Source: a candidate division WOR-3 bacterium UBA2258 (GTDB taxonomy: Bacteria; Hydrothermota; Tepidihabitantia; Tepidihabitantales; Tepidihabitantaceae). From it: a stretch of 64,000 nucleotides of DNA. Where the stretch lies: the NCBI GenBank assembly GCA_002347155.1, contig DDXO01000113.1, forward strand, positions 1,570 to 65,569, written 5' to 3'. The translations under genes and the position numbers were made by a program. This document shows, piece after piece, positions 905-9,995 of the stretch (positions are counted from its first letter, which is position 1; every line of letters begins with the position of its first letter). The notes under the pieces were generated by a model that made no database searches, was not told the DNA's origin, and saw nothing but the letters and a program-made list of their open reading frames with translations.

Positions 905-3900
905 TCATTGGAACAGCAGACCGGCCCATTTGTAGACGCCTTTGCTGACGAGGTGGAAGCGCTCGCGGGGGACGTTGAGCTTGCCCCGGACATGCTTGGC
1001 TTTGTTCAGAGCGGCTTTGGCGAGGCCTTTCTTCTCCAGCTTGTCCCACGGCTCCGCAAAAGGGATGGCAGCGGGTACGGTTTCCTCGTCGACGACTGCC
1101 TTCAGCAGTGCCTCAAACCCGGCCCCGCTGGCTGACGTCGGCGCGACGGCCTCAAGAGCAGCCTGTATCCGCTTGTCGCGCCTGAGGAATTCGGCCCACG
1201 ACGAAAGGAACTCAGTGTGGCCCTTGGTCTTGTTCTCAAGGTACCACTCGGCTTTCTCCAGCAGCCACCAGTCAAAGGCGTCGGCCAGTTCCTGTTCGTA
1301 GGCGACCGGGCCGCATTCCCAGCGGTTCTTCACCTTCCACTGCTCGTCCCAGCGGCGCTTGTAGACCGGCTGCTCAATGCGGCGGATGTGCTCGTTGTCG
1401 CGGATGGCAGTCAGGCGCTCGCGCCAGAGGCGCTTGGACGGATCCGACAAAGCGGACGGAACCAGACTTATCGCGGAAGCGAAGTCGCCCTTTGCGGCCT
1501 GCCAGAGACGATACGGGCGGTCATCCTTGGCGAGCGGCTCGGGCGTGGCCGGAACCTGGGCGGCCGGGTGGTCTTCGGGCAGGAGGCCGTAGGCGGCGTA
1601 GACCAGCCAGTCCATTTCCTCCTGGAGGGCAATCATCTCGGAGCGCAGACGCTCTCGTTCGGCCACGACGCGGTCATAGGCCTGCTTCAGTTCCTCGGCC
1701 GTGCTGAACGGCTTGCCGACGACCGGATGCGGCTGCTCGTATCCGGGCAGAGATGAGTTCCACTCATGGTACGCCTCGCCCGGCTTCTCGAACAGCTTCT
1801 TCATCGCCAACGATGGCAGCTTCTGCCCCCGCTCCCAGCACTCCTCGGCCAGATCTGCCAGTCGCTTCGCCAGCGGATTCCACTCGCCCTTCAGCGCCTG
1901 CGCCACTTTCCCCGGCACTGGCAACTGCTCGACCTTGCCGCCCGCGAAGACATAGTAGGTATCCTTCTCAGGCTGCTCGGACTCCCGCTTGCTGAAGCAC
2001 ACCTGCTTGAGCCAGAACAGCGCGGCGGAGGAGTTGAGAAGGGCTGCGTGAAGTTGGAGGCTGCGCTCGTCGCCGCAGGACACGGGGATGACTGGGGTTG
2101 TCTGCGTGTAGACCCGAGCGCGTTGACTCACGGCGACGTGAATATGTGTGGTGATCTCCGGGACTACGAGCGTGGGAACTTGGCCACGGCGGGTGAAGCG
2201 GTAGTACTCGAACCAAGCCAGCCCGAAGTCCACCTGCGAAAGGCCGCCTAGCTGGGGGCGTTCGGACAGCAGTTTCCTCCATGGCGCAAGGAGAGCCGCG
2301 ACAGTCTTGGACAGCGATGGTTTCAGTTTCGTGTCGTATGGGAACAAGCACCAATGGTCTGAGTCCTGAGCGTAGTTACGAACCATGTCGCCCTCAGAAA
2401 ACAGCGAGAGGTTCCGTCCTTCCACGCCTGCGCGTCGCCAGAACGACGCCGGGTTGTCATAGAGCTCCCGAGCGCCAAAGATGACGTCGAAGCCCATGTG
2501 GTCCACTATGAACGAGCCCAGCAGTTCAGGCCCGGTGACCGCCGCCCGGGTCAGTTCTGCACCGGTCGTGAAGTTCATCGGCCAGACTAGAAACCGTCCT
2601 GCCTCCACGGTCGCCACTTGCACCGCACCATCGTCATAGCTCTGTTTATCGTGTTGCTGCTCTAAGATATGCCACAAAGCGGATTCCTCGGGGGGCGTTT
2701 GCAGGTCACCGCCGCCGGGGAGGATGGCGGCGACACGGACCGGCGTCTTCGGGTCAGACTTCTGGTTCGCGCCAAAGACAAGACAGGTGGGCGTCCCGTG
2801 ACCGGGGAACATCAGGCCGGAGCAGTCTATGACCTTCTGCAGATTCACCTTAGTGAAGAACTGTTCCACCAGCGGTTTGCCGAACTCCCGCTTGGCGAAG
2901 GCATTGGAGACGATGAAGCCAAGCTGGCCAGTAGGCCGGAGCAGGCTGAATGAGAGAGGGAAGAACGGGACAAGCAAGTGGTACTTGCCATAGCAGTACG
3001 GCTGCCAGCGTTCGCGGTAGAGCTCCCGTTTGTCGGGGTTGCGGGCGGTCACGAACGGCGGGTTGCCGACGAAGATGTCGAAACCGCCGACTGGGGCGGG
3101 CGAGGAGCGACGATTCTTCGCTTCGCTCAGAATGACAAGCTGCTCCGGGTAGAAGACCTGGGGGAAGTCTATTCGCCAGGCGAAGTTGAAGGGCGCGTCG
3201 AAACTCGCGCCTTCGAGCTTGCGGAGCTGTTGGACGAATGCGTGTCCGAGCGGCTTCTCCTCCAGTTGGTCGCGTTCCTTCTGCGCCGCCTTCACGCCTT
3301 TGAGAGCGTCATCGAGCTGGCGCGTTTCGTGGGCGATGCGCTGGCGACGGTCGGCATCAGACTTGCCTTCGCCGAACAGCCCTGCAGCTATTGAGTCCTT
3401 GCGGCGCAGAAGCTGAAGCTCGACGCCAATCACTGACTCGCTGACTTCCAGTCGCTTCTTCAGGATGTCCAGGCGCAGGTTGCGCTTCGCGTTCCACGAC
3501 TTCGCCTTGTGCAGGCGCTCGCCCAGGCGGTGGATGGCATCGAAGAGCTTCTGGTAGCGGTGTTCCTTTCCAGGCAGAATGACCACAGGCACGCCGCAGA
3601 TGTGGTCGTGCAGGCTGTCGCCGCGCTTGAAGTTCATCTCAAGGTTAGGCAGTTGCGAGATGTCTTTGAGCGCAGTCCTGAACTGCGTGGGACTGGCGCC
3701 AATCGGGTCAATGCCAAGGTCGTAGTCCACGACCAGCGACAGCCACAGTCGCAACATGCAGATTTCGATTGCCTGCTGCTGGATGTCCACGCCGAACAGG
3801 GCATTCTCGATGATGTCGGCCTTGGTCTCGTGCAGCCACCTGCTGCCCTGCTGGCGCAGCGGGTCAACGTAGCCGTTAGCCGCGGTCTGGGCAAGGCGGC

Positions 3901-5422
3901 GGAGGTTGGTGAGTTCGTGCAGCAGGCCAACCATGAACGCGCCCGAGCCAACCGCCGGGTCGCAGCAGCGCAGTGCTTTGACCAGTTCCAGTAGGCGCGT
4001 GCCTTCCTCGGGCGAGAGGCAAGACTTGAGCTTCTCCAGTTCTTCTCGGTCCAAGCCGTCGGATCCGTCCAATCCGACTAATCGCCGCAGGCGGCCGGGC
4101 CAGTCGTCACCGGTGAGCCGTGGCAGCAGCCACTGGTACAGGACTTCACGGCAGATGAAGTGGACTACTATGCGCGGCGTGTAGAACGAGCCGGTCTCCT
4201 TGCGTTTGTCCGGCGCAGTTGCGTCAGGGTCGGCGGATTCGGCGTGCAGCACGATGGACTCGAAGACCTTGCCGAGCATCTCCGGGTCAACCGCGACTTC
4301 CTGGTTTAGCGGCGTGTCTTCGCGCACCGTGAAGTTGAAGGCTTCCAGCAGTTCGTCAAAGACCTTCTCAAAGGTCGCGTTGCGCACCGGCAGCGGCGGG
4401 TTGTCCCTCTTGCGGCGCGGGGACGGCTCGAATTCGTCGTCGTTGAACAGGCCGCCGTTGAGGAACGGCACGTTGTCCCAGCGCACGAACGCCGAGCTAC
4501 CCGCGCTGCTCAGAGACCAGAAGAGCATGTCGAGGAAGTCCGCGTAGTAGCTGCATTCCTTCGGCCGGTTCCGGTGCGGCTCAAAGCCATCGAGCAGGAA
4601 GCCGCGGCGCTGGTCCAGCCAGCCGCGGTTCTGGACAAAGTAGAGGAAGATGAGTCGTTCAAGCAGGAGCTGCGCCTTGGAGTAGGCTTCGGGCGAATCG
4701 AGCTTGCCGAGTTTCTCAAGGTCGGCCTTGATGAGCTCCAGCGCGGCGTCGAACTGCTTGAAGAACTTGCGGGTAAGCGGTTCTTTGTCAAAGGCCGCGG
4801 CCCACTTCTTAACCCACTCGTCCTTGTCGGCTTCGTCTTCTGGCCAGGCCAAGTTGGGCAGGTTCTCGGTGACGGCCGTGCGCGACGGCTGGCCCGGGAC
4901 CCAGCCGAACGTCGCCAGCTTGGCATCGGCGACCTTACCTGTGCCGAAGGTATCCCGGAACATCGCGAAGACGTACTGCTTGTAGTTGTGCGTGCAGATG
5001 AAAAGGATGTTGCCGAGGTCCCACGAGGGCAGGTTGGCTTCCTTGCGCTTTCCGGCCACGAGCCGGCGCAGAATCGCGCGCAGAGGCGTGCCGAATCCGC
5101 GCGTCTCGAAGACCTTGGGCTCGTCGAACTCCAGCAGGAAGATGCCCCACGGCTGGTCGGCGCGCGGGCGCAGTAGGATTTCGTAGGCTTTGGCCTTGTG
5201 CCCGGTCTCGGGCATACCGAGCTCGTTTGCGCTCCACTCGTAGCCGACATCCTGTGGCTTGATGGGCTTGTCGCTGAGCGGCCAGCGCAGGCAGTCGCCC
5301 AGCAGGTCTGCAGCGAACGAGCGGAAGTCGCGGGCGTTGGCGAGGGCGGAAGCGAGGGACTCGGGGGAAGCCACAGGATTATCCGACGGATCGGTCGGAT
5401 CCGTCTGATGAGCGCGTGCCAC
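905..5422 (-). CDS. large gamma-class N6-adenine DNA methyltransferase of the MmeI / PglX / DrmMI (Type IIG-IIL-like) family, 1505 aa
   Basis: Family-typical helix ERLIFLYFVQNRGWL; motif X-like ETGSFYTPRIVV; motif I DPAVGSGAFMVG; motif IV FVGNPPFV. About 700 aa follow motif IV, covering the target-recognition region plus an extra C-terminal extension. A possible N-terminal D..EPK nuclease-like motif (FLLEFDEPK) is uncertain. Confidence 0.8.
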   Translation of the reverse strand: MARAHQTDPTDPSDNPVASPESLASALANARDFRSFAADLLGDCLRWPLSDKPIKPQDVGYEWSANELGMPETGHKAKAYEILLRPRADQPWGIFLLEFDEPKVFETRGFGTPLRAILRRLVAGKRKEANLPSWDLGNILFICTHNYKQYVFAMFRDTFGTGKVADAKLATFGWVPGQPSRTAVTENLPNLAWPEDEADKDEWVKKWAAAFDKEPLTRKFFKQFDAALELIKADLEKLGKLDSPEAYSKAQLLLERLIFLYFVQNRGWLDQRRGFLLDGFEPHRNRPKECSYYADFLDMLFWSLSSAGSSAFVRWDNVPFLNGGLFNDDEFEPSPRRKRDNPPLPVRNATFEKVFDELLEAFNFTVREDTPLNQEVAVDPEMLGKVFESIVLHAESADPDATAPDKRKETGSFYTPRIVVHFICREVLYQWLLPRLTGDDWPGRLRRLVGLDGSDGLDREELEKLKSCLSPEEGTRLLELVKALRCCDPAVGSGAFMVGLLHELTNLRRLAQTAANGYVDPLRQQGSRWLHETKADIIENALFGVDIQQQAIEICMLRLWLSLVVDYDLGIDPIGASPTQFRTALKDISQLPNLEMNFKRGDSLHDHICGVPVVILPGKEHRYQKLFDAIHRLGERLHKAKSWNAKRNLRLDILKKRLEVSESVIGVELQLLRRKDSIAAGLFGEGKSDADRRQRIAHETRQLDDALKGVKAAQKERDQLEEKPLGHAFVQQLRKLEGASFDAPFNFAWRIDFPQVFYPEQLVILSEAKNRRSSPAPVGGFDIFVGNPPFVTARNPDKRELYRERWQPYCYGKYHLLVPFFPLSFSLLRPTGQLGFIVSNAFAKREFGKPLVEQFFTKVNLQKVIDCSGLMFPGHGTPTCLVFGANQKSDPKTPVRVAAILPGGGDLQTPPEESALWHILEQQHDKQSYDDGAVQVATVEAGRFLVWPMNFTTGAELTRAAVTGPELLGSFIVDHMGFDVIFGARELYDNPASFWRRAGVEGRNLSLFSEGDMVRNYAQDSDHWCLFPYDTKLKPSLSKTVAALLAPWRKLLSERPQLGGLSQVDFGLAWFEYYRFTRRGQVPTLVVPEITTHIHVAVSQRARVYTQTTPVIPVSCGDERSLQLHAALLNSSAALFWLKQVCFSKRESEQPEKDTYYVFAGGKVEQLPVPGKVAQALKGEWNPLAKRLADLAEECWERGQKLPSLAMKKLFEKPGEAYHEWNSSLPGYEQPHPVVGKPFSTAEELKQAYDRVVAERERLRSEMIALQEEMDWLVYAAYGLLPEDHPAAQVPATPEPLAKDDRPYRLWQAAKGDFASAISLVPSALSDPSKRLWRERLTAIRDNEHIRRIEQPVYKRRWDEQWKVKNRWECGPVAYEQELADAFDWWLLEKAEWYLENKTKGHTEFLSSWAEFLRRDKRIQAALEAVAPTSASGAGFEALLKAVVDEETVPAAIPFAEPWDKLEKKGLAKAALNKAKHVRGKLNVPRERFHLVSKGVYKWAGLLFQ

Positions 5423-6158
5423 GGCATTGCGGGTAGCCGGTGCAGCCGAGGAATTGCTGGCCGGCGTGCGGACCTTTGCGGGCGGTGCGCAAGGTCATTG
5501 GCTTGCCGCAGAGCGGGCAGGGAGGAAGGCCGGAATCGGACCGATCAGACGGATCGGACTGATGTTTTGCGCGCTCGGCAATGCGGGCTGCGGCCAGTTG
5601 CTCGCTGTAGCCGCCCTCTTTCACAAAGCCGCGCTCAAGGGCGGCGGTCTGCCGGTCGAGCAGGTAGTTGGCCTGGTGAATCAGGCAGATGATGGCGTTG
5701 GCGACAACGGCGGGGTCGGCGGAGGCGAGCCAGCGGGAATAATCGGACGGAGCCGACCGATCGGACGGATCGGTCCGATGCTGAACACCCAGCGACCGGA
5801 CCTTGCGGGCCTCTGGGTCATCTTTGGCCCATTGGCGCAGGCCACGCTGGCGCAGGAAGTCCTCGTAGTCGAGCAGCAGTTCGTCGAGGCTGCCGCGGGC
5901 GACATTGACAAGCCGAAGCTCGGTCTGGCTTGACGTAGCGGAGGCGCGACTGCCCTCGGCGATGTTCTGCCGGCCGCTGCGTGCCGCCTGTACCATCTGG
6001 TCGTGCGTTCGCGACCGCTTGTCCACGAATCGCTCACAGAATCCCACGGTGGTATCGTAAATGATGGTGGCGACCTGGAATGACCGGAGCGCGCGGTAGC
6101 CGCCGCTGGGGCGAAGGCGCCGGGATCGGTCGAATCCGACGGATCGGTCAGGTTTCAC
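5379..6158 (-). CDS. chimeric ORF: four-helix-bundle protein (TIGR02436-like, 23S rRNA intervening-sequence protein family) fused in-frame to a topoisomerase-type C4 zinc ribbon; modules separated by palindromic repeats
   Basis: Four-helix-bundle signature QNIAEGSRAS...VARGSLDELLLDYEDFLRQRGL; Zn ribbon CPLCGKPMTLRTARKGPHAGQQFLGCTGYPQC. Repeat-encoded DPSDRS linkers lie between the modules. It overlaps the start of the methyltransferase gene. Confidence 0.5.
   Translation of the reverse strand: MKPDRSVGFDRSRRLRPSGGYRALRSFQVATIIYDTTVGFCERFVDKRSRTHDQMVQAARSGRQNIAEGSRASATSSQTELRLVNVARGSLDELLLDYEDFLRQRGLRQWAKDDPEARKVRSLGVQHRTDPSDRSAPSDYSRWLASADPAVVANAIICLIHQANYLLDRQTAALERGFVKEGGYSEQLAAARIAERAKHQSDPSDRSDSGLPPCPLCGKPMTLRTARKGPHAGQQFLGCTGYPQCRGTRSSDGSDRSVG
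5381..5410. repeat. GATCGG-rich palindromic short repeat, copy 1 (atccgacggatcggtcggatccgtctgatg)
   Basis: Shares the core CGGATCGGTC / ATCGGACGGATCGG with three other copies within 800 bp. Reads as DPSD/RIGRI peptides in both strands. Confidence 0.6.
5534..5564. repeat. GATCGG-rich palindromic short repeat, copy 2
   Basis: aatcggaccgatcagacggatcggactgatg. Confidence 0.6.
5741..5780. repeat. GATCGG-rich palindromic short repeat, copy 3
   Basis: aatcggacggagccgaccgatcggacggatcggtccgatg. Confidence 0.6.
6121..6155. repeat. GATCGG-rich palindromic short repeat, copy 4
   Basis: gatcggtcgaatccgacggatcggtcaggtttcac. Confidence 0.6.
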
Positions 6159-9100
6159 GCAACCTCCAGCCAGCAGACGAGCTCAGGCTTGATGGTCAGC
6201 GGCAGGCCACGATCACGCATCAGCTTGAGTACCTTGCCCTGCTCGATGGCCTCACGCTCGGGAGCGAGCTTCTTAACGCCGAGTCGCGCCTTGCGTTTCT
6301 CGCTCGGTTGGCACTGGATGGCAGGCCAGATCAGCTCTATGCCGTCGTGAACCTCGCCGGTATCACGTTCGCGGTAATACCAGCGCACCTCTGATGTCGC
6401 TTGTGCGATGTCGTTCCAGATGCGGTACGCACAGAAAACTCCCGGCTTGAGCTTCAACTCCCGCTTCCACTCCCGGCCGGAGAACACACGCTTGGGCAAG
6501 GTCGGAAGATTTGCGTACAGCTCGGGATGTTCGTGTTCGATTGCCTCCAGCGCAAGACGCAGCTTCTCTTCCGTGCTCTCGTGGCCTTCGTAGGCCTCGT
6601 TGAATTCCTTCAGCGTCATGTCAGGGTCGTCAGGCGTGAGCAGAGCACCTTCGATACCGAGGGCTGCGTTGATGCGCAGAACTTTGCCCGTAACCCGTTT
6701 GAAGAGTCCCAGAATGTCATCAAGGTCCTGGGGCGGCAGGAAGTTCCAGAAGAATATCTTGCGGTCAAGGAGCTTGGGCCGCTTGAGCCGTTTCTCGATT
6801 TCGGTGTCGAGCCGGCGGTCCACGCGGCCGATGCGCTGAATCAGGCGCACCGGGTTCCAGTGCATGTCGTAGTTGATGAGCAGCGAGGCGTCCTGAAGGT
6901 TCAGGCCCTCCGAGAGCACATCGGTCGAGACGAGAATGTCGATTGGCTGTTTCAGGTAGTCCTTCACCTGGCCGGGCTCGCAGTTGTAGTAGGGCGCGAA
7001 GCGACGTATGACTTCCTCGCGGTTCAGCTTGCGCGTTGAGTCGATTTCCTCGACGTTGGGCAGGTCGGCGACGTCGGCCAACTGCTGGCGCAAGTATCGT
7101 GCGGTGGCACGGAACTCGGTGAAGATGGCGACCTTGTGGCCACGGATGTCGGGCGCGTCCTCTTCCGGCTCGCCGGTGAGCAGGGCGAGGAGCTTCTGGA
7201 GTTTGTCATCCTTGGTGGGGTCCTCTTTGTCTTCGGCGGTATAGAACCGCTTCGCTATCTTGGCCAGGAACTCCAGCAGCAGGTTCATGTCTTCAACAAG
7301 GTCGGCCAGCAGCCGGTCCATATGGTGCTCGGCCGGGTCTATCCGCCGCGACTCGGGCAGGTCGTTTTCTTCCTCGTCCTCGTCGTAGCCGAGTTCCAGT
7401 CGCTCGCGCTGGTGGACCTTGATGCGCTTCCAGTACCGGTCATTGGCAGTAACCCAGCCGTCGAACTTTTCCGACGAATAGGCTTTGAGGAAGTCGGCCA
7501 TGTTGGCAAGCAAGTCCTCGACCGATGCTTCAAATGCCTTGTAGGAGCTTTCCAGTCGTTTCAGCAGCAGGGTCCGAATCAGGCCGACGACCTGCTTCTG
7601 CTCAAGCAGCTTCTTCTCGGCCTTCTCGCCCTTGCGATAGGCCTCGGTGCAGTAGAGCGCAAGGTTAAGGAAAGGGGTGTCGCGGTTAAAGGCCTGCTTG
7701 ACCTCGTCGTAGATGGAGGCGTAGACCTTCTTGAGCGAGTACTTCACCACGCGTGGCCGCTGGCGCACCGGGAACGCTGGTTCGTTGGCCCGGCCTTCCT
7801 CTGATGCCTTCACGTACTTGCGGCTGCGCTGGATGAGGACCGACTTGAATATCGGCTGTTCGGTGAGGAACTTCTCGACCGCGCGCAGGTCGGACCAGTC
7901 ACCTAACTGGATGGCATTCTCGAACTGCCGGTCGGGACCCGAGAACACACGGCGGTAGTCGTGGATTCCGATTCGGGCGAAATGGTCCTTCTCCGGCGCG
8001 AAGTAGTTGATGAGGTGATACAGGTCGAGCAGGCGGTTGTTCACGGGGGTTGCGGTGAGCTGGAAGATCTGCTTCTTCGGGTTACCCTCACGCAGCAGGC
8101 GCGTGAGCAGTATGCTACGATTGGACGACGGCGTACGGAAGTGGTGGGCCTCGTCGATTATCACGACGTCGGTATCGCGGCTCAGTTCGACGAGCTTGTC
8201 AGGAGGGACCGTGCTGTCGCGGCCGAAGTCAGTGTGGCGGCGGGTTGAGAACATCTGGCCGTACTCGGTGCGATAGATGTACTTCAGTAGCGGGTCGGGA
8301 TTCTTGTTCGACGGCTTCCAGTGCCGCTCCCAGACGCTCGCCTGGGCCGACTTCGGCACGATGAGCAGGACCCGCTTGCGGTCGTGGACGAAGCGCTCCA
8401 GGAGCATCAGGCCGATGTAGGTCTTGCCGAGGCCGACGCCATCGCAGACGAGCGCGCCACCCCATTGTTGCCCCATCTCGATTGCGGTGCGATAGCCGTC
8501 CTGCTGGTACTTGGAGAGCTTGGGCCAGACGCGGCTCTCGCGCTGCTCCCAGTCGGTGACTGGTGCTTCGCGGCCGGAGAGGAATTCGTACAGCGCCTTG
8601 GCGTAGACCTCGAATGGCGAGAACTCGCGGGTGTGGCGCTCTATTATTCGCAGTGCGTCTTCATTGAGCAGTTCGGTGTCGGCCTTCTCCCACATCGCGG
8701 CGAACCACTCAGCAAGGTCGTCTACGTGAGCGCGGTCAGTCGTAAGCAGGTTCAACTCGATGTTTGTCGAAAGCCCTGCGGCCGTGAAGTTGCTACTGCC
8801 AATGATTGCGAAGTCTACCGGGTTGGGCGGCACAGTGGTGAACACGTAGCTCTTGGCGTGGAACTTACCTCGGCTGTAGACGCGAGCCTCTATCTGATGG
8901 GAACCCAGCGCGGCTTTGACAGCCTCAATGCCAGTCAGCGAGTCGTCGCGTGACTTGGTGAGTTCCAGTGAGTCGTCGTTCTGTACGCGGAAGGCCTCCA
9001 CCAGTTCCAGTCGGGTCCGACGGCCGATGGCGTCGCCGAGCAGTATTCGTATCTTCCCAACCTTCTGCCACTCCCCATCGAGCGCGAGTAATGAACCTAG

Positions 9101-9217
9101 CTCAAAGAAACCGGTCGCGACGTCCAGGCTCTTTGTCGTTTGCGCTATCTGTTTGATTGCGTCGCACAGGGTGATTGACCCCTGATTGTCGATGATGTTG
9201 GGAAGCTTGCTGGCCAT
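6155..9217 (-). CDS. PLD-family (HKD) nuclease domain fused to SNF2-family helicase, 1020 aa
   Basis: N-terminal FHAKSYVF...[12 protein letters not shown] (single HKD-type PLD motif, Nuc/BfiI-like). Helicase motifs [12 protein letters not shown] (I), [10 protein letters not shown] (II), LTATP (III), and [36 protein letters not shown] (helicase C-terminal domain, motifs V-VI). Confidence 0.8.
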   Translation of the reverse strand: [1020 protein letters not shown]

Positions 9218-9611
9218 ACCCTAGTCCGATATCCGGCCAAACATGCGGAGAGTTATAGCCGCGAAAAGCCCGAGAGTCAAGGACGCGGCTCCGCCGCAGT
9301 TCATGCTCAAGCATACCTCGTTCATCGTTGGTTCGTCTATCGTTCCTCGCCCCGGTGGCAGCGCAAGCGCAAGCAGCGACGGTTGCCCCGTGCAGGTGCC
9401 ATCCGATGGCTCAACCCGCCCATTTGAGGCGCCCATCAGGGCGTTGCCGATTGTCGCCAGCAGACTGGAGATTGGCCGCGTGTCCCGCTCGGTTGACATC
9501 CAGACCCGCGAGACCTAGAATCCGGGCGTGAAGACTCCTCATGCGTCCGGCCCGCCCGCCGGTCAAAACCAGCCACGGCGAAGGGAACCGCGGTGAGCGG
9601 GGTACGTTAGC

Positions 9612-9995
9612 ATGGCACTGCTGGATAGACTGCTGAGGCAGCAGTCGAAGCACTGGACCGAGGCAGACTACGAGGAAACGCCTATCGCGTGCCCTGACTG
9701 CGAGAAACCGTTCGGCCACCTCGGCCTGCTCGAGAGTTTCGACCTGACGAGGAAGGAATTCCTGGACGCAGTGCGGGTGCAGGCTTCGGCAGTGCGGGAG
9801 CACCCGTCACACCCCAGGATCACCTGCCCGCACTGTGGGTGCGCGCATGACGTGAACTACCTCGGCGTCTGGATGTTCCTGCTGTTGTGTATGTGGGAAG
9901 TGCTGCTCGAGAAGAAGGTGATAGCGGTTGACGGCGGATTCGCGGCGTTTGTACGCCACGAGGAGAAGGTGACACGCAAGGCGAAGAACCGGTGA
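9612..9995 (+). CDS. small hypothetical protein with two CxxC pairs (CPDC...CPHC), putative zinc ribbon
   Basis: ORF sits in an otherwise gene-free stretch between the defence genes and the TA pair. The cysteine pairs are spaced as in a Zn ribbon. No further support. Confidence 0.35.
   Translation: MALLDRLLRQQSKHWTEADYEETPIACPDCEKPFGHLGLLESFDLTRKEFLDAVRVQASAVREHPSHPRITCPHCGCAHDVNYLGVWMFLLLCMWEVLLEKKVIAVDGGFAAFVRHEEKVTRKAKNR

Follow-up and report, generated by a model that had tools for sequence, protein, structure and literature searches.

GATC-phased nine-nucleotide arrays of a promiscuous four-helix-bundle accessory gene are conserved as DNA and recur at unrelated loci

How can a short palindromic repeat lie four times in one small gene without breaking its reading frame, and is it the protein or the DNA that keeps the repeat there? 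The question is raised by a 64,000-nucleotide stretch of contig DDXO01000113.1 from the candidate division WOR-3 bacterium UBA2258 (hereafter the window), in which a minus-strand open reading frame (ORF) at 5379-6158, encoding 259 amino acids and placed between a helicase gene and a methyltransferase gene, crosses all four repeats. A preliminary description of the locus, made from the letters alone, had seen in them copies of a palindromic mini-repeat with a common 16-mer core, and had proposed mobile mini-elements tolerated as flexible linkers, recombination scars that fused gene fragments, or a regulatory or phase-variation device. We found that the repeats are tandem arrays of a 9-nt unit, that they are kept as nucleotide sequence beyond the demands of the amino acids alone, and that their length varies in steps of whole units. 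Arrays of this class are scattered over many phyla and phages, with the small gene as their most consistent carrier.

The four repeats are real. When the 16-mer ATCGGACGGATCGGTC was sought in the 64-kb window with up to three mismatches, 15 matches were obtained against 0.97 expected, a number reached in none of 100 shuffles, and 13 of the 15 lay inside the four sites. The exact 16-mer, however, is held by a single site; the true unit is the strand-symmetric 9-mer GATC-N-G-W-C-N, present in the window as four arrays of two to four tandem units. This unit is palindromic both about the centre of GATC and about the W, and an array looks alike on the two strands. A repeat search returned eight overlapping copies in the 9-nt register (at 5371-5409, 5534-5563, 5732-5779 and 6115-6153), every array site being complementary to every other, and Tandem Repeats Finder (TRF) reported a period of 9 for 5381-5409 and 5742-5773. 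The arrays measure 20-45 bp each and their edges fade through degenerate units. Counting copies of the 16-mer, which the preliminary description had suggested for the whole genome, gave no dispersed repeat within the window, and matches to the stricter pattern GATC.G[AT]C.GAT or its mirror are confined to the four sites of this one gene. The palindromic and stop-free character of the repeats was correctly seen (the plus strand reads IRRIGRI across copy 1, the 3' array), and so was the single minus-strand frame that runs through all of them.

Along this frame the arrays alternate with protein modules. The 5' array (6124-6153; about three degenerate units) directly follows the GTG start and encodes DRSVGFDRS, so that GATC lies outside the Asp-codon frame there. 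After it comes a segment of the TIGR02436/PF05635 four-helix bundle (5874-6086, minus strand; residues 25-95), which the linker L1 array (5741-5779; about four units, TDPSDRSAPSD, with GAT as Asp) separates from a four-helix-bundle suffix domain, TIGR04258 (5568-5714, minus strand; residues 149-197). The linker L2 array (5534-5563; about three units, SDPSDRSD) stands between the suffix domain and a C4 zinc ribbon of the topoisomerase I type (PF01396, Zn_ribbon_Top1; 5406-5519, minus strand; residues 214-251). The 3' array (5380-5409; about three units) yields SDGSDRSVG in a shifted frame, provides the TAA stop (5381-5379) and lies directly upstream of the probable methyltransferase start.

The DNA-level conservation was measured in 92 distinct family genes collected with their DNA, in which the internal linkers were set by protein alignment (hmmalign-based segmentation) and not by motif, so that the comparison is not circular. 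Asp is encoded by GAT in 91% of 635 linker codons versus 36% of 982 domain codons, Arg by CGG in 58% versus 26%, and Ser by TCN in 92% versus about 50%. The density of GATC is 42.6 per kb in the linkers (497 observed, 33.7 expected), compared with 5.1 per kb in the domains. Across 81 family genes, an array was detected at L1 in 60, at L2 in 62, at the 3' end in 44 and at the 5' end in 32; linkers of about the same length but without repeats occur in some members. The internal arrays always stand in frame 0, with GAT as Asp (60/60 for L1 and 62/62 for L2), and the 3' array stands in frame 1 in 34 of 44 genes. Of these 44 genes, 16 have their stop codon before the array, 6 within it and 22 beyond it, and in one member beside a type I restriction system (L010) the 3' array is wholly intergenic.

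The distribution of GATC within the operon is equally uneven. All eight GATC sites of the small gene in the window fall within its arrays; the helicase gene holds 3 against 10.8 expected and the methyltransferase gene 4 against 15.3, in a window with an overall observed/expected ratio of about 0.64. In an orthologous operon (L008) the methyltransferase gene has 0 GATC against 15.2 expected and the cassette, that is, the small gene with its arrays, has 11, and host ratios are as low as 0.11-0.16. The depletion of both large defence genes suggests long exposure to GATC-directed restriction.

The three-gene island of helicase, small gene and methyltransferase recurs in L008 and in a second locus, L006, between unrelated housekeeping genes, and all indels that distinguish the window operon from these two fall in the arrays. 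Those in L1, L2 and the 3' array are exactly 9 nt: L008 has one unit fewer in L1, and the window has one unit fewer than both orthologues in L2 and in the 3' array. The 5' array comes or goes in one piece: L006 and L008 lack all of it.

The same comparison bears on where the methyltransferase begins. Copy 1 had been taken to supply its codons 6-13 (TDPTDPSD), which is an artefact of the longest ORF. That ORF starts at GTG 5422, where the zinc ribbon has its conserved CRGT codons; a start codon is missing at the equivalent position of L006, gene callers place the methyltransferase starts of L006 and L008 just past the cassette stop, and in L008 an in-frame TAG two codons before the ATG bars extension upstream into the array. 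By this comparison the probable start in the window is the GTG at 5374-5372, 4 nt past the TAA, and a longest-ORF annotation would add 16 spurious residues to the methyltransferase. Its first codons contain a weak 12-nt tandem repeat, GCGGAAGCGAGG, at 5321-5358 (TRF, 3.1 copies, score 39), which is unrelated to the GATC arrays.

The modules that the arrays separate identify the small protein as a member of an already known but unstudied family. The ORF passes the cut-offs of TIGR02436 (32.3 bits, cut-off 24, covering just model positions 4-69 of 109) and of TIGR04258 (72.1 bits, cut-off 40, full model 1-49), and remains below that of PF05635 (29.5 bits versus 33.8); TIGR02436/PF05635 is the family of 23S rRNA intervening sequence proteins (S23 family), which includes the Avd protein of diversity-generating retroelements (DGR). 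The zinc ribbon scores 37.7 bits with PF01396 against a cut-off of 32, a profile that also matches topoisomerase chains in the PDB, and its cysteines C214, C217, C239 and C245 are invariant in 21 aligned sequences.

The AlphaFold2 model contains confident helices and a small sheet. Helices are predicted with high confidence at residues 25-44, 50-71 and 77-104 in the TIGR02436 part, further helices are predicted at 149-180 and 186-200 in the suffix part, and the predicted local distance difference test score (pLDDT) falls below 50 at residues 1-18 (5' array), 128-136 (L1), 199-209 (L2) and 254-259 (3' array). The arrays are thus predicted to encode disordered spacers between folded modules, and the earlier idea of flexible linkers is borne out by the coincidence of these segments with all four arrays. 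The best PDB matches in foldseek, 2gsc and 2rld, are crystal structures of the TIGR02436 family (probability 0.96-1.0, TM-score 0.6-0.7 on the target, though with E-values of only 0.2-0.3). Because the alignments span 152-157 columns and the targets have 112-117 residues, the last helix of the bundle would lie beyond copy 3, and in the model the TIGR04258 suffix probably supplies this helix after the L1 array; copy 3 is therefore probably inside the four-helix-bundle fold, as had been supposed.

The gene at 5379-6158 is the sole family member within the 64-kb window. A protein search returned at least 8000 homologues, of which 120 listed ones were read for domain content: PF01396 is present in all 120 and PF05635 in nearly all, identities range from 65 to 97%, and the sequences come from WOR-3, Chloroflexi, Deltaproteobacteria, Verrucomicrobia, Limnocylindria and unnamed metagenomes. 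In 21 aligned homologues [ST]-D-[RPQ] tracts of variable length occur in the same four places, namely at both termini and ahead of the suffix domain and of the zinc ribbon. Two homologues (P0042 and P0058) carry a second Top1-type zinc ribbon at the N-terminus, which a TDR/TDP repeat tract joins to the four-helix bundle, and this points to a rearrangement of modules at the arrays. NCBI and JGI label relatives as 'four helix bundle suffix domain-containing protein', and PADLOC has no model for the small protein. Literature searches on TIGR04258, on TIGR02436/PF05635, on the motif and on four-helix-bundle genes in type I systems gave nothing relevant, and we found no paper on the suffix subfamily, its zinc ribbon, its placement in restriction operons or its DNA repeats.

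The genes on either side belong to a putative defence operon. Upstream lies a fusion of a PLD(HKD) nuclease and an SNF2 helicase (6155-9217, minus strand; 1020 aa), whose best match in PADLOC is 'HKD+Snf2' C3a139 (E 7.7e-60) and whose TGA overlaps the GTG start of the small gene (GTGA). Downstream lies a PglX/Eco57I-type N6-adenine methyltransferase with DUF7008 (905-5374, minus strand). The scores of the operon stay below the NCBIfam cut-offs both for PglX of the bacteriophage exclusion system BREX-2 (329.8 versus 400) and for DrmD (140 versus 610) of the defence island system associated with restriction-modification (DISARM). The operon was assigned to neither BREX nor DISARM, given these scores and orthologous islands that hold the helicase, the small gene and the methyltransferase only.

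In three loci with more distant helicases (L334-L336; helicase identity 48-53%) the methyltransferase directly follows PLD-SNF2, with no gene and no array between them. We conclude that the small gene and its arrays were inserted into a pre-existing two-gene operon, precisely where one gene stops and the next starts. In a further locus (L333, helicase identity 62%) the slot is filled by an NYN-domain gene (9246-9875), and the place between helicase and methyltransferase seems open to accessory genes in general. In other loci the small gene itself separates hsdS from hsdR in type I systems (L005, L010-L012 and numerous metagenome loci), belongs to an SNF2/DUF1156/DUF499 operon (L001) or stands, in many cases, in a non-defence neighbourhood; among 133 ORFs flanking family genes, Methylase_S occurs 15 times and HSDR_N 10 times, in a total of 120 Pfam families. 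It was not found in any of 2.9 million viral contigs. A degraded remnant of the cassette, still flanked by arrays, lies about 2.4 kb upstream of hsdR in another locus (L170:1300-1720); we had considered it as a stand-alone array-flanked zinc-ribbon module and rejected this, as it is degraded and frame-shifted, with an N-terminal RIRPGGGY segment joined out of frame to the ribbon.

Arrays of the same kind also occur far from the family. Viral contigs were scanned for three GATC in register and GTDB species genomes for a four-GATC pattern, and more than 120 stretches of each were found to hold arrays; the frequencies that follow come from samples. The genomic arrays belong mainly to Planctomycetota, Verrucomicrobiota (including Akkermansia), Lentisphaerota, Kiritimatiellia, Hydrogenedentota, Acidobacteriota, Myxococcota and Geobacterales, with several array loci per metagenome-assembled genome (MAG). 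An array adjoins a family gene in 0 of 149 viral and 17 of 140 genomic cases. ORFs beside 150 array flanks represent 107 unrelated Pfam families, in which only domains of nonribosomal peptide synthetases (NRPS) and polyketide synthases (PKS) recur, and the 25 most frequent of these families include no transposase. According to a heuristic based on the GC content of third codon positions, about 10-12% of the sampled arrays are in-frame inside genes, and most are at gene boundaries or in non-coding DNA. In-frame arrays are carried by loops of NRPS adenylation domains (VVLAR, array, LVAYV in L143, L147 and L173). In phage contigs (L086, L076 and L055) arrays lie between consecutive genes, and phage arrays often sit between a stop codon and the next ribosome-binding site. 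The free positions of the unit reflect its symmetry: T is scarce at position 5 (6-8%), as A is at the mirror position 9 (10-12%), and A and T are about equally frequent at position 7. The strand bias relative to transcription is mild, and the arrays do not strongly favour either side of a gene, upstream or downstream.

Several lineages show forms of their own. In Acidobacteriota NRPS the array replaces the loop between the VVxAR and LVAYV strands in the C-terminal subdomain of the adenylation domain (L143:1033-1063; L147:3438-3468 and 6639-6678; L173:353-374 and 6731-6779), once per module and about every 3.2 kb in L147. Lentisphaerota (Oligosphaera ethanolica and MAGs) have long-hairpin arrays, in which a run of GGATCNGAC is followed by a fixed centre, CCGACGACCTGATC, and a run of complementary units, the whole being flanked by a conserved cttcttcgcggacg motif (L186:1902-2171, L198:7404-7483, L203:298-400, L243:6185-6263); these look like a lineage-specific derivative resembling repetitive extragenic palindromic (REP) elements. 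Elsewhere arrays lie within longer non-coding tracts of other short tandem repeats, such as G-rich runs, GGTCGGAGGTCAGA and GTCCCGTCCGT (L213:2600-4930, L152:800-900, L222:6500-6600 and L242/L215), and form composite repeat regions in some lineages.

Three simpler accounts of the solitary arrays were discarded. They are not footprints of lost cassettes, as arrays abound in viral contigs, which hold no family gene, no array lies between hsdS and hsdR in loci selected for arrays, and the cassette-free PLD-SNF2/methyltransferase junctions have none. Nor do they mark other four-helix-bundle genes or transposases, given the 107 unrelated neighbour families. An adapter or assembly artefact was rejected because conserved proteins carry arrays in-frame and genomes of isolates (Oligosphaera ethanolica, Streptomyces novaecaesareae) contain them. 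To our knowledge, the repeat unit is not an Illumina adapter.

The explanation that we prefer, to which we give a probability of about 0.55 as a whole, is that the arrays are inherited, family-wide parts of a promiscuous small accessory gene. This gene, together with its arrays, would have entered the stop/start junction of an older defence operon of PLD-SNF2 and a PglX-like methyltransferase. Its internal arrays, always read as Asp-[Arg/Pro/Gln]-[Ser/Thr], would serve as disordered spacers between modules, and the terminal arrays as spacers at the gene boundaries through which a start or stop codon can slide. Gain or loss of 9-nt units, probably in slippage-type events, would never break the frame. 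As the cause of persistence we favour the double dyad symmetry of the array: the centres of GATC and GWC are 4.5 bp apart, hence the 9-bp period, and symmetry about both would allow the same hydrophilic tripeptide to be read from either strand, almost free of stops. Slippage and hairpin template switching may homogenize the units. The outcome would be a frame-tolerant, orientation-independent repeat that is fit for intergenic spacers, for protein loops and for moving start or stop codons.

Several considerations weigh against this explanation. Template switching and selection for readability on two strands are processes that we infer, and the fixed orientation of the gene gives no obvious reason for a two-strand constraint. 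The potential to form hairpins is modest, with a mean folding z of -1.1 to -1.6 compared with -0.2 for a control region in 60 genes, and of -0.4 to -1.3 for the arrays of the window. About a quarter of the family genes have no detectable array at L1 or L2, and the arrays are therefore dispensable for the protein. Finally, the retention of GATC in GATC-depleted operons could reflect a GATC-specific function, e.g., methylation-dependent binding or restriction-related recombination. A bolder proposition, which we hold only tentatively and think rather improbable, is that GATC-phased arrays form an undescribed, widespread repeat class, strand-symmetric and tolerant of translation, which selection keeps at the nucleotide level, probably through its GATC sites, and which offers portable junctions for the shuffling of genes and domains, e.g., through template switching or through cuts at GATC that are joined again; the small gene would then be a mobile hitch-hiker cassette that uses these junctions to settle precisely between restriction-modification genes.

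Because of the GATC islands in depleted operons, the strongest rival is that the arrays are kept for their GATC sites, whether for a GATC methyltransferase, for methylation-sensitive binding or for breakage and rejoining by restriction. In the last variant the self-complementary 4-nt ends might let modules excise, invert, re-insert or change their unit number in the 9-nt register. Such a function agrees with the 15-fold enrichment of GATC in the linkers and its retention in strongly depleted operons and hosts, with arrays at module and gene boundaries, with internal and 3' indels of whole units, with core types that come as reverse-complement pairs of similar frequency, and with the abundance of arrays in phages and defence operons. 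GATC recognition, however, leaves the conserved G-W-C half unexplained, the cassette-free junctions and other insertion sites have neither an array nor an obvious GATC target, slippage accounts equally well for the 9-nt indels and the hosts span many phyla, and we consider such a function unlikely. An RNA element appears less likely again. Here, mRNA hairpins would set processing, stability or translational coupling across the helicase, the small gene and the methyltransferase, in the manner of REP elements or of the RNase III stems on either side of 23S rRNA intervening sequences, a number of which code for proteins of the small protein's family (PMC10053308). The arrays can pair with themselves (in copy 1, as a stem of 8 bp around a 5-nt loop), about 30% have z below -2 with the mean values given above, terminal arrays abut stops and a downstream start or Shine-Dalgarno-like GGAG/GGA motifs in many loci, and arrays elsewhere are mostly at gene boundaries. 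Structure is nevertheless not the main explanation, because the folding z is too weak, the absolute stability being no better than that of the coding control. Moreover, many arrays elsewhere are homogeneous tandem runs incapable of forming hairpins, Rfam gave no match in 5200-6400 at E up to 1, side preference is not strong and strand asymmetry is mild.

If selection acted purely on a flexible spacer rich in Asp, Ser, Arg and Pro, the DNA repeat would be a by-product. The linker positions conserved across the family, the constant Asp frame of the internal arrays, the predicted disorder and the non-repeat linkers of similar length in some members are all in accordance with this, and the preliminary description had reckoned that a conserved linker in relatives would mark a genuine low-complexity linker. 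Relatives do carry arrays at the same positions, so that this expectation is borne out in part, but conservation at the DNA level remains: the synonymous sites are fixed (GAT and CGG as given above), the 3' array is conserved in another frame and even past the stop, and the same arrays stand in non-coding DNA of unrelated loci and in phages, which leaves little likelihood for a by-product. Still harder to accept is a recent insertion of mobile mini-elements, or scars that fused unrelated gene fragments, at the window locus. It is true that an array can come or go as a whole (the window and P0001 have the 5' array, L006 and L008 lack it), that the extra N-terminal zinc ribbon of two homologues is joined via an array, and that the stop codon moves through the 3' array. 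Against this, the internal and 3' arrays and the three-module architecture are common to many phyla and operon types and are therefore older than the window locus, the window has no other array copy, and neither terminal inverted repeats nor target duplications nor a transposase were seen. From the idea of mobile mini-elements we retain a DNA element tolerated in-frame, which fits hundreds of unrelated loci and the nucleotide conservation, and give up recent insertion here; fusion scars at this locus do not agree with a conserved three-module family, most sampled members of which bear arrays at the same positions. Lowest of all we rank a contingency device in which repeat slippage switches the defence operon on and off. 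Tandem repeats do lie in a restriction-type operon and their unit number varies between orthologues, but an ON/OFF frameshift switch is excluded because a 9-nt unit keeps the frame: the internal and 3' arrays of the orthologues differ by exactly 9 nt and never lose it, each array has just two to four units, and the downstream methyltransferase starts past the array.

Dispersed palindromes are among the closest known systems. REP elements (including CGTC- and GTAG-tagged ones) and Rickettsia palindromic elements (RPE) lie between, and in-frame inside, unrelated genes, and such repeats occur in several phyla, including the Planctomycetes-Verrucomicrobia-Chlamydiae (PVC) group, a dedicated transposase not always being evident (PMC3733652). 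Our arrays resemble them in being palindromic, dispersed and tolerated in-frame as well as between genes. However, REP and RPE take the form of one stem-loop (20-40 bp) or of a longer element (about 100-150 bp) and end in a GTAG or CGTC tag, whereas the arrays consist of tandem 9-nt units with GATC and GWC dyads, without a fixed tag, and number from 2 to more than 10 units. REP elements have a high genomic copy number and are mostly extragenic, whereas the window arrays are confined to one gene in 64 kb. REP and REPIN (REP doublets forming hairpins) go with REP-associated tyrosine transposases (RAYT) of the IS200/IS605 type, none of which is among the 25 commonest Pfam families neighbouring arrays. 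RPE, at about 100-150 bp, occur in Rickettsia, and the arrays, 20-45 bp in the window, occur in other phyla. Palindromic amphipathic repeat coding elements (PARCEL) are tandem coding repeats with dyad symmetry, spread sporadically by horizontal transfer and borne by 'gene-centric vehicles' (PMC2996958). Their unit is a 25-residue amphipathic motif in structured domains of membrane proteins, whereas the array unit encodes three residues of a hydrophilic linker predicted to be disordered, and non-coding DNA holds many such units too. Contingency loci of restriction-modification genes contain simple-sequence repeats whose frame shifts switch expression ON and OFF (e.g., PMC7383803); the arrays share with them tandem repeats of variable copy number in restriction-modification operons, but their 9-nt unit cannot shift the frame. 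The recurrence of the arrays across phyla and phages, mostly at gene boundaries and sometimes inside proteins, and their survival as GATC islands in depleted defence operons would, if they hold, point to a repeat class not yet recognized and akin in spirit to REP, RPE and PARCEL.

The small gene has parallels of its own. The Avd protein of DGR is encoded beside a reverse transcriptase, and the small gene instead beside a PLD-SNF2 helicase and an Eco57I-type methyltransferase; a reverse transcriptase is absent beside the window gene, and none is among the most frequent neighbour Pfam families elsewhere. The gene prrC is a small, unrelated accessory gene between hsdS and hsdR of a restriction operon, with which it is co-transcribed. 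Like prrC, the small gene is wedged between core genes (hsdS and hsdR in many loci, helicase and methyltransferase in the window), but it also occurs in many non-defence neighbourhoods.

If the arrays were merely slippage-prone linkers, they would be a tidy but ordinary feature of a known, uncharacterised family. If the conservation at the DNA level holds, a linker with fixed synonymous sites would be a clear case of a constraint at the nucleic-acid level hidden in coding sequence. The array persists whether it is translated or not, and annotation pipelines, which read it as low complexity, may misplace the starts of neighbouring genes, as in the longest-ORF reading of the methyltransferase. 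The recurrence across phyla and phages, if it holds, could be relevant to the reshuffling of operons and multidomain proteins and to the role of the very common, unstudied four-helix-bundle genes in restriction systems.

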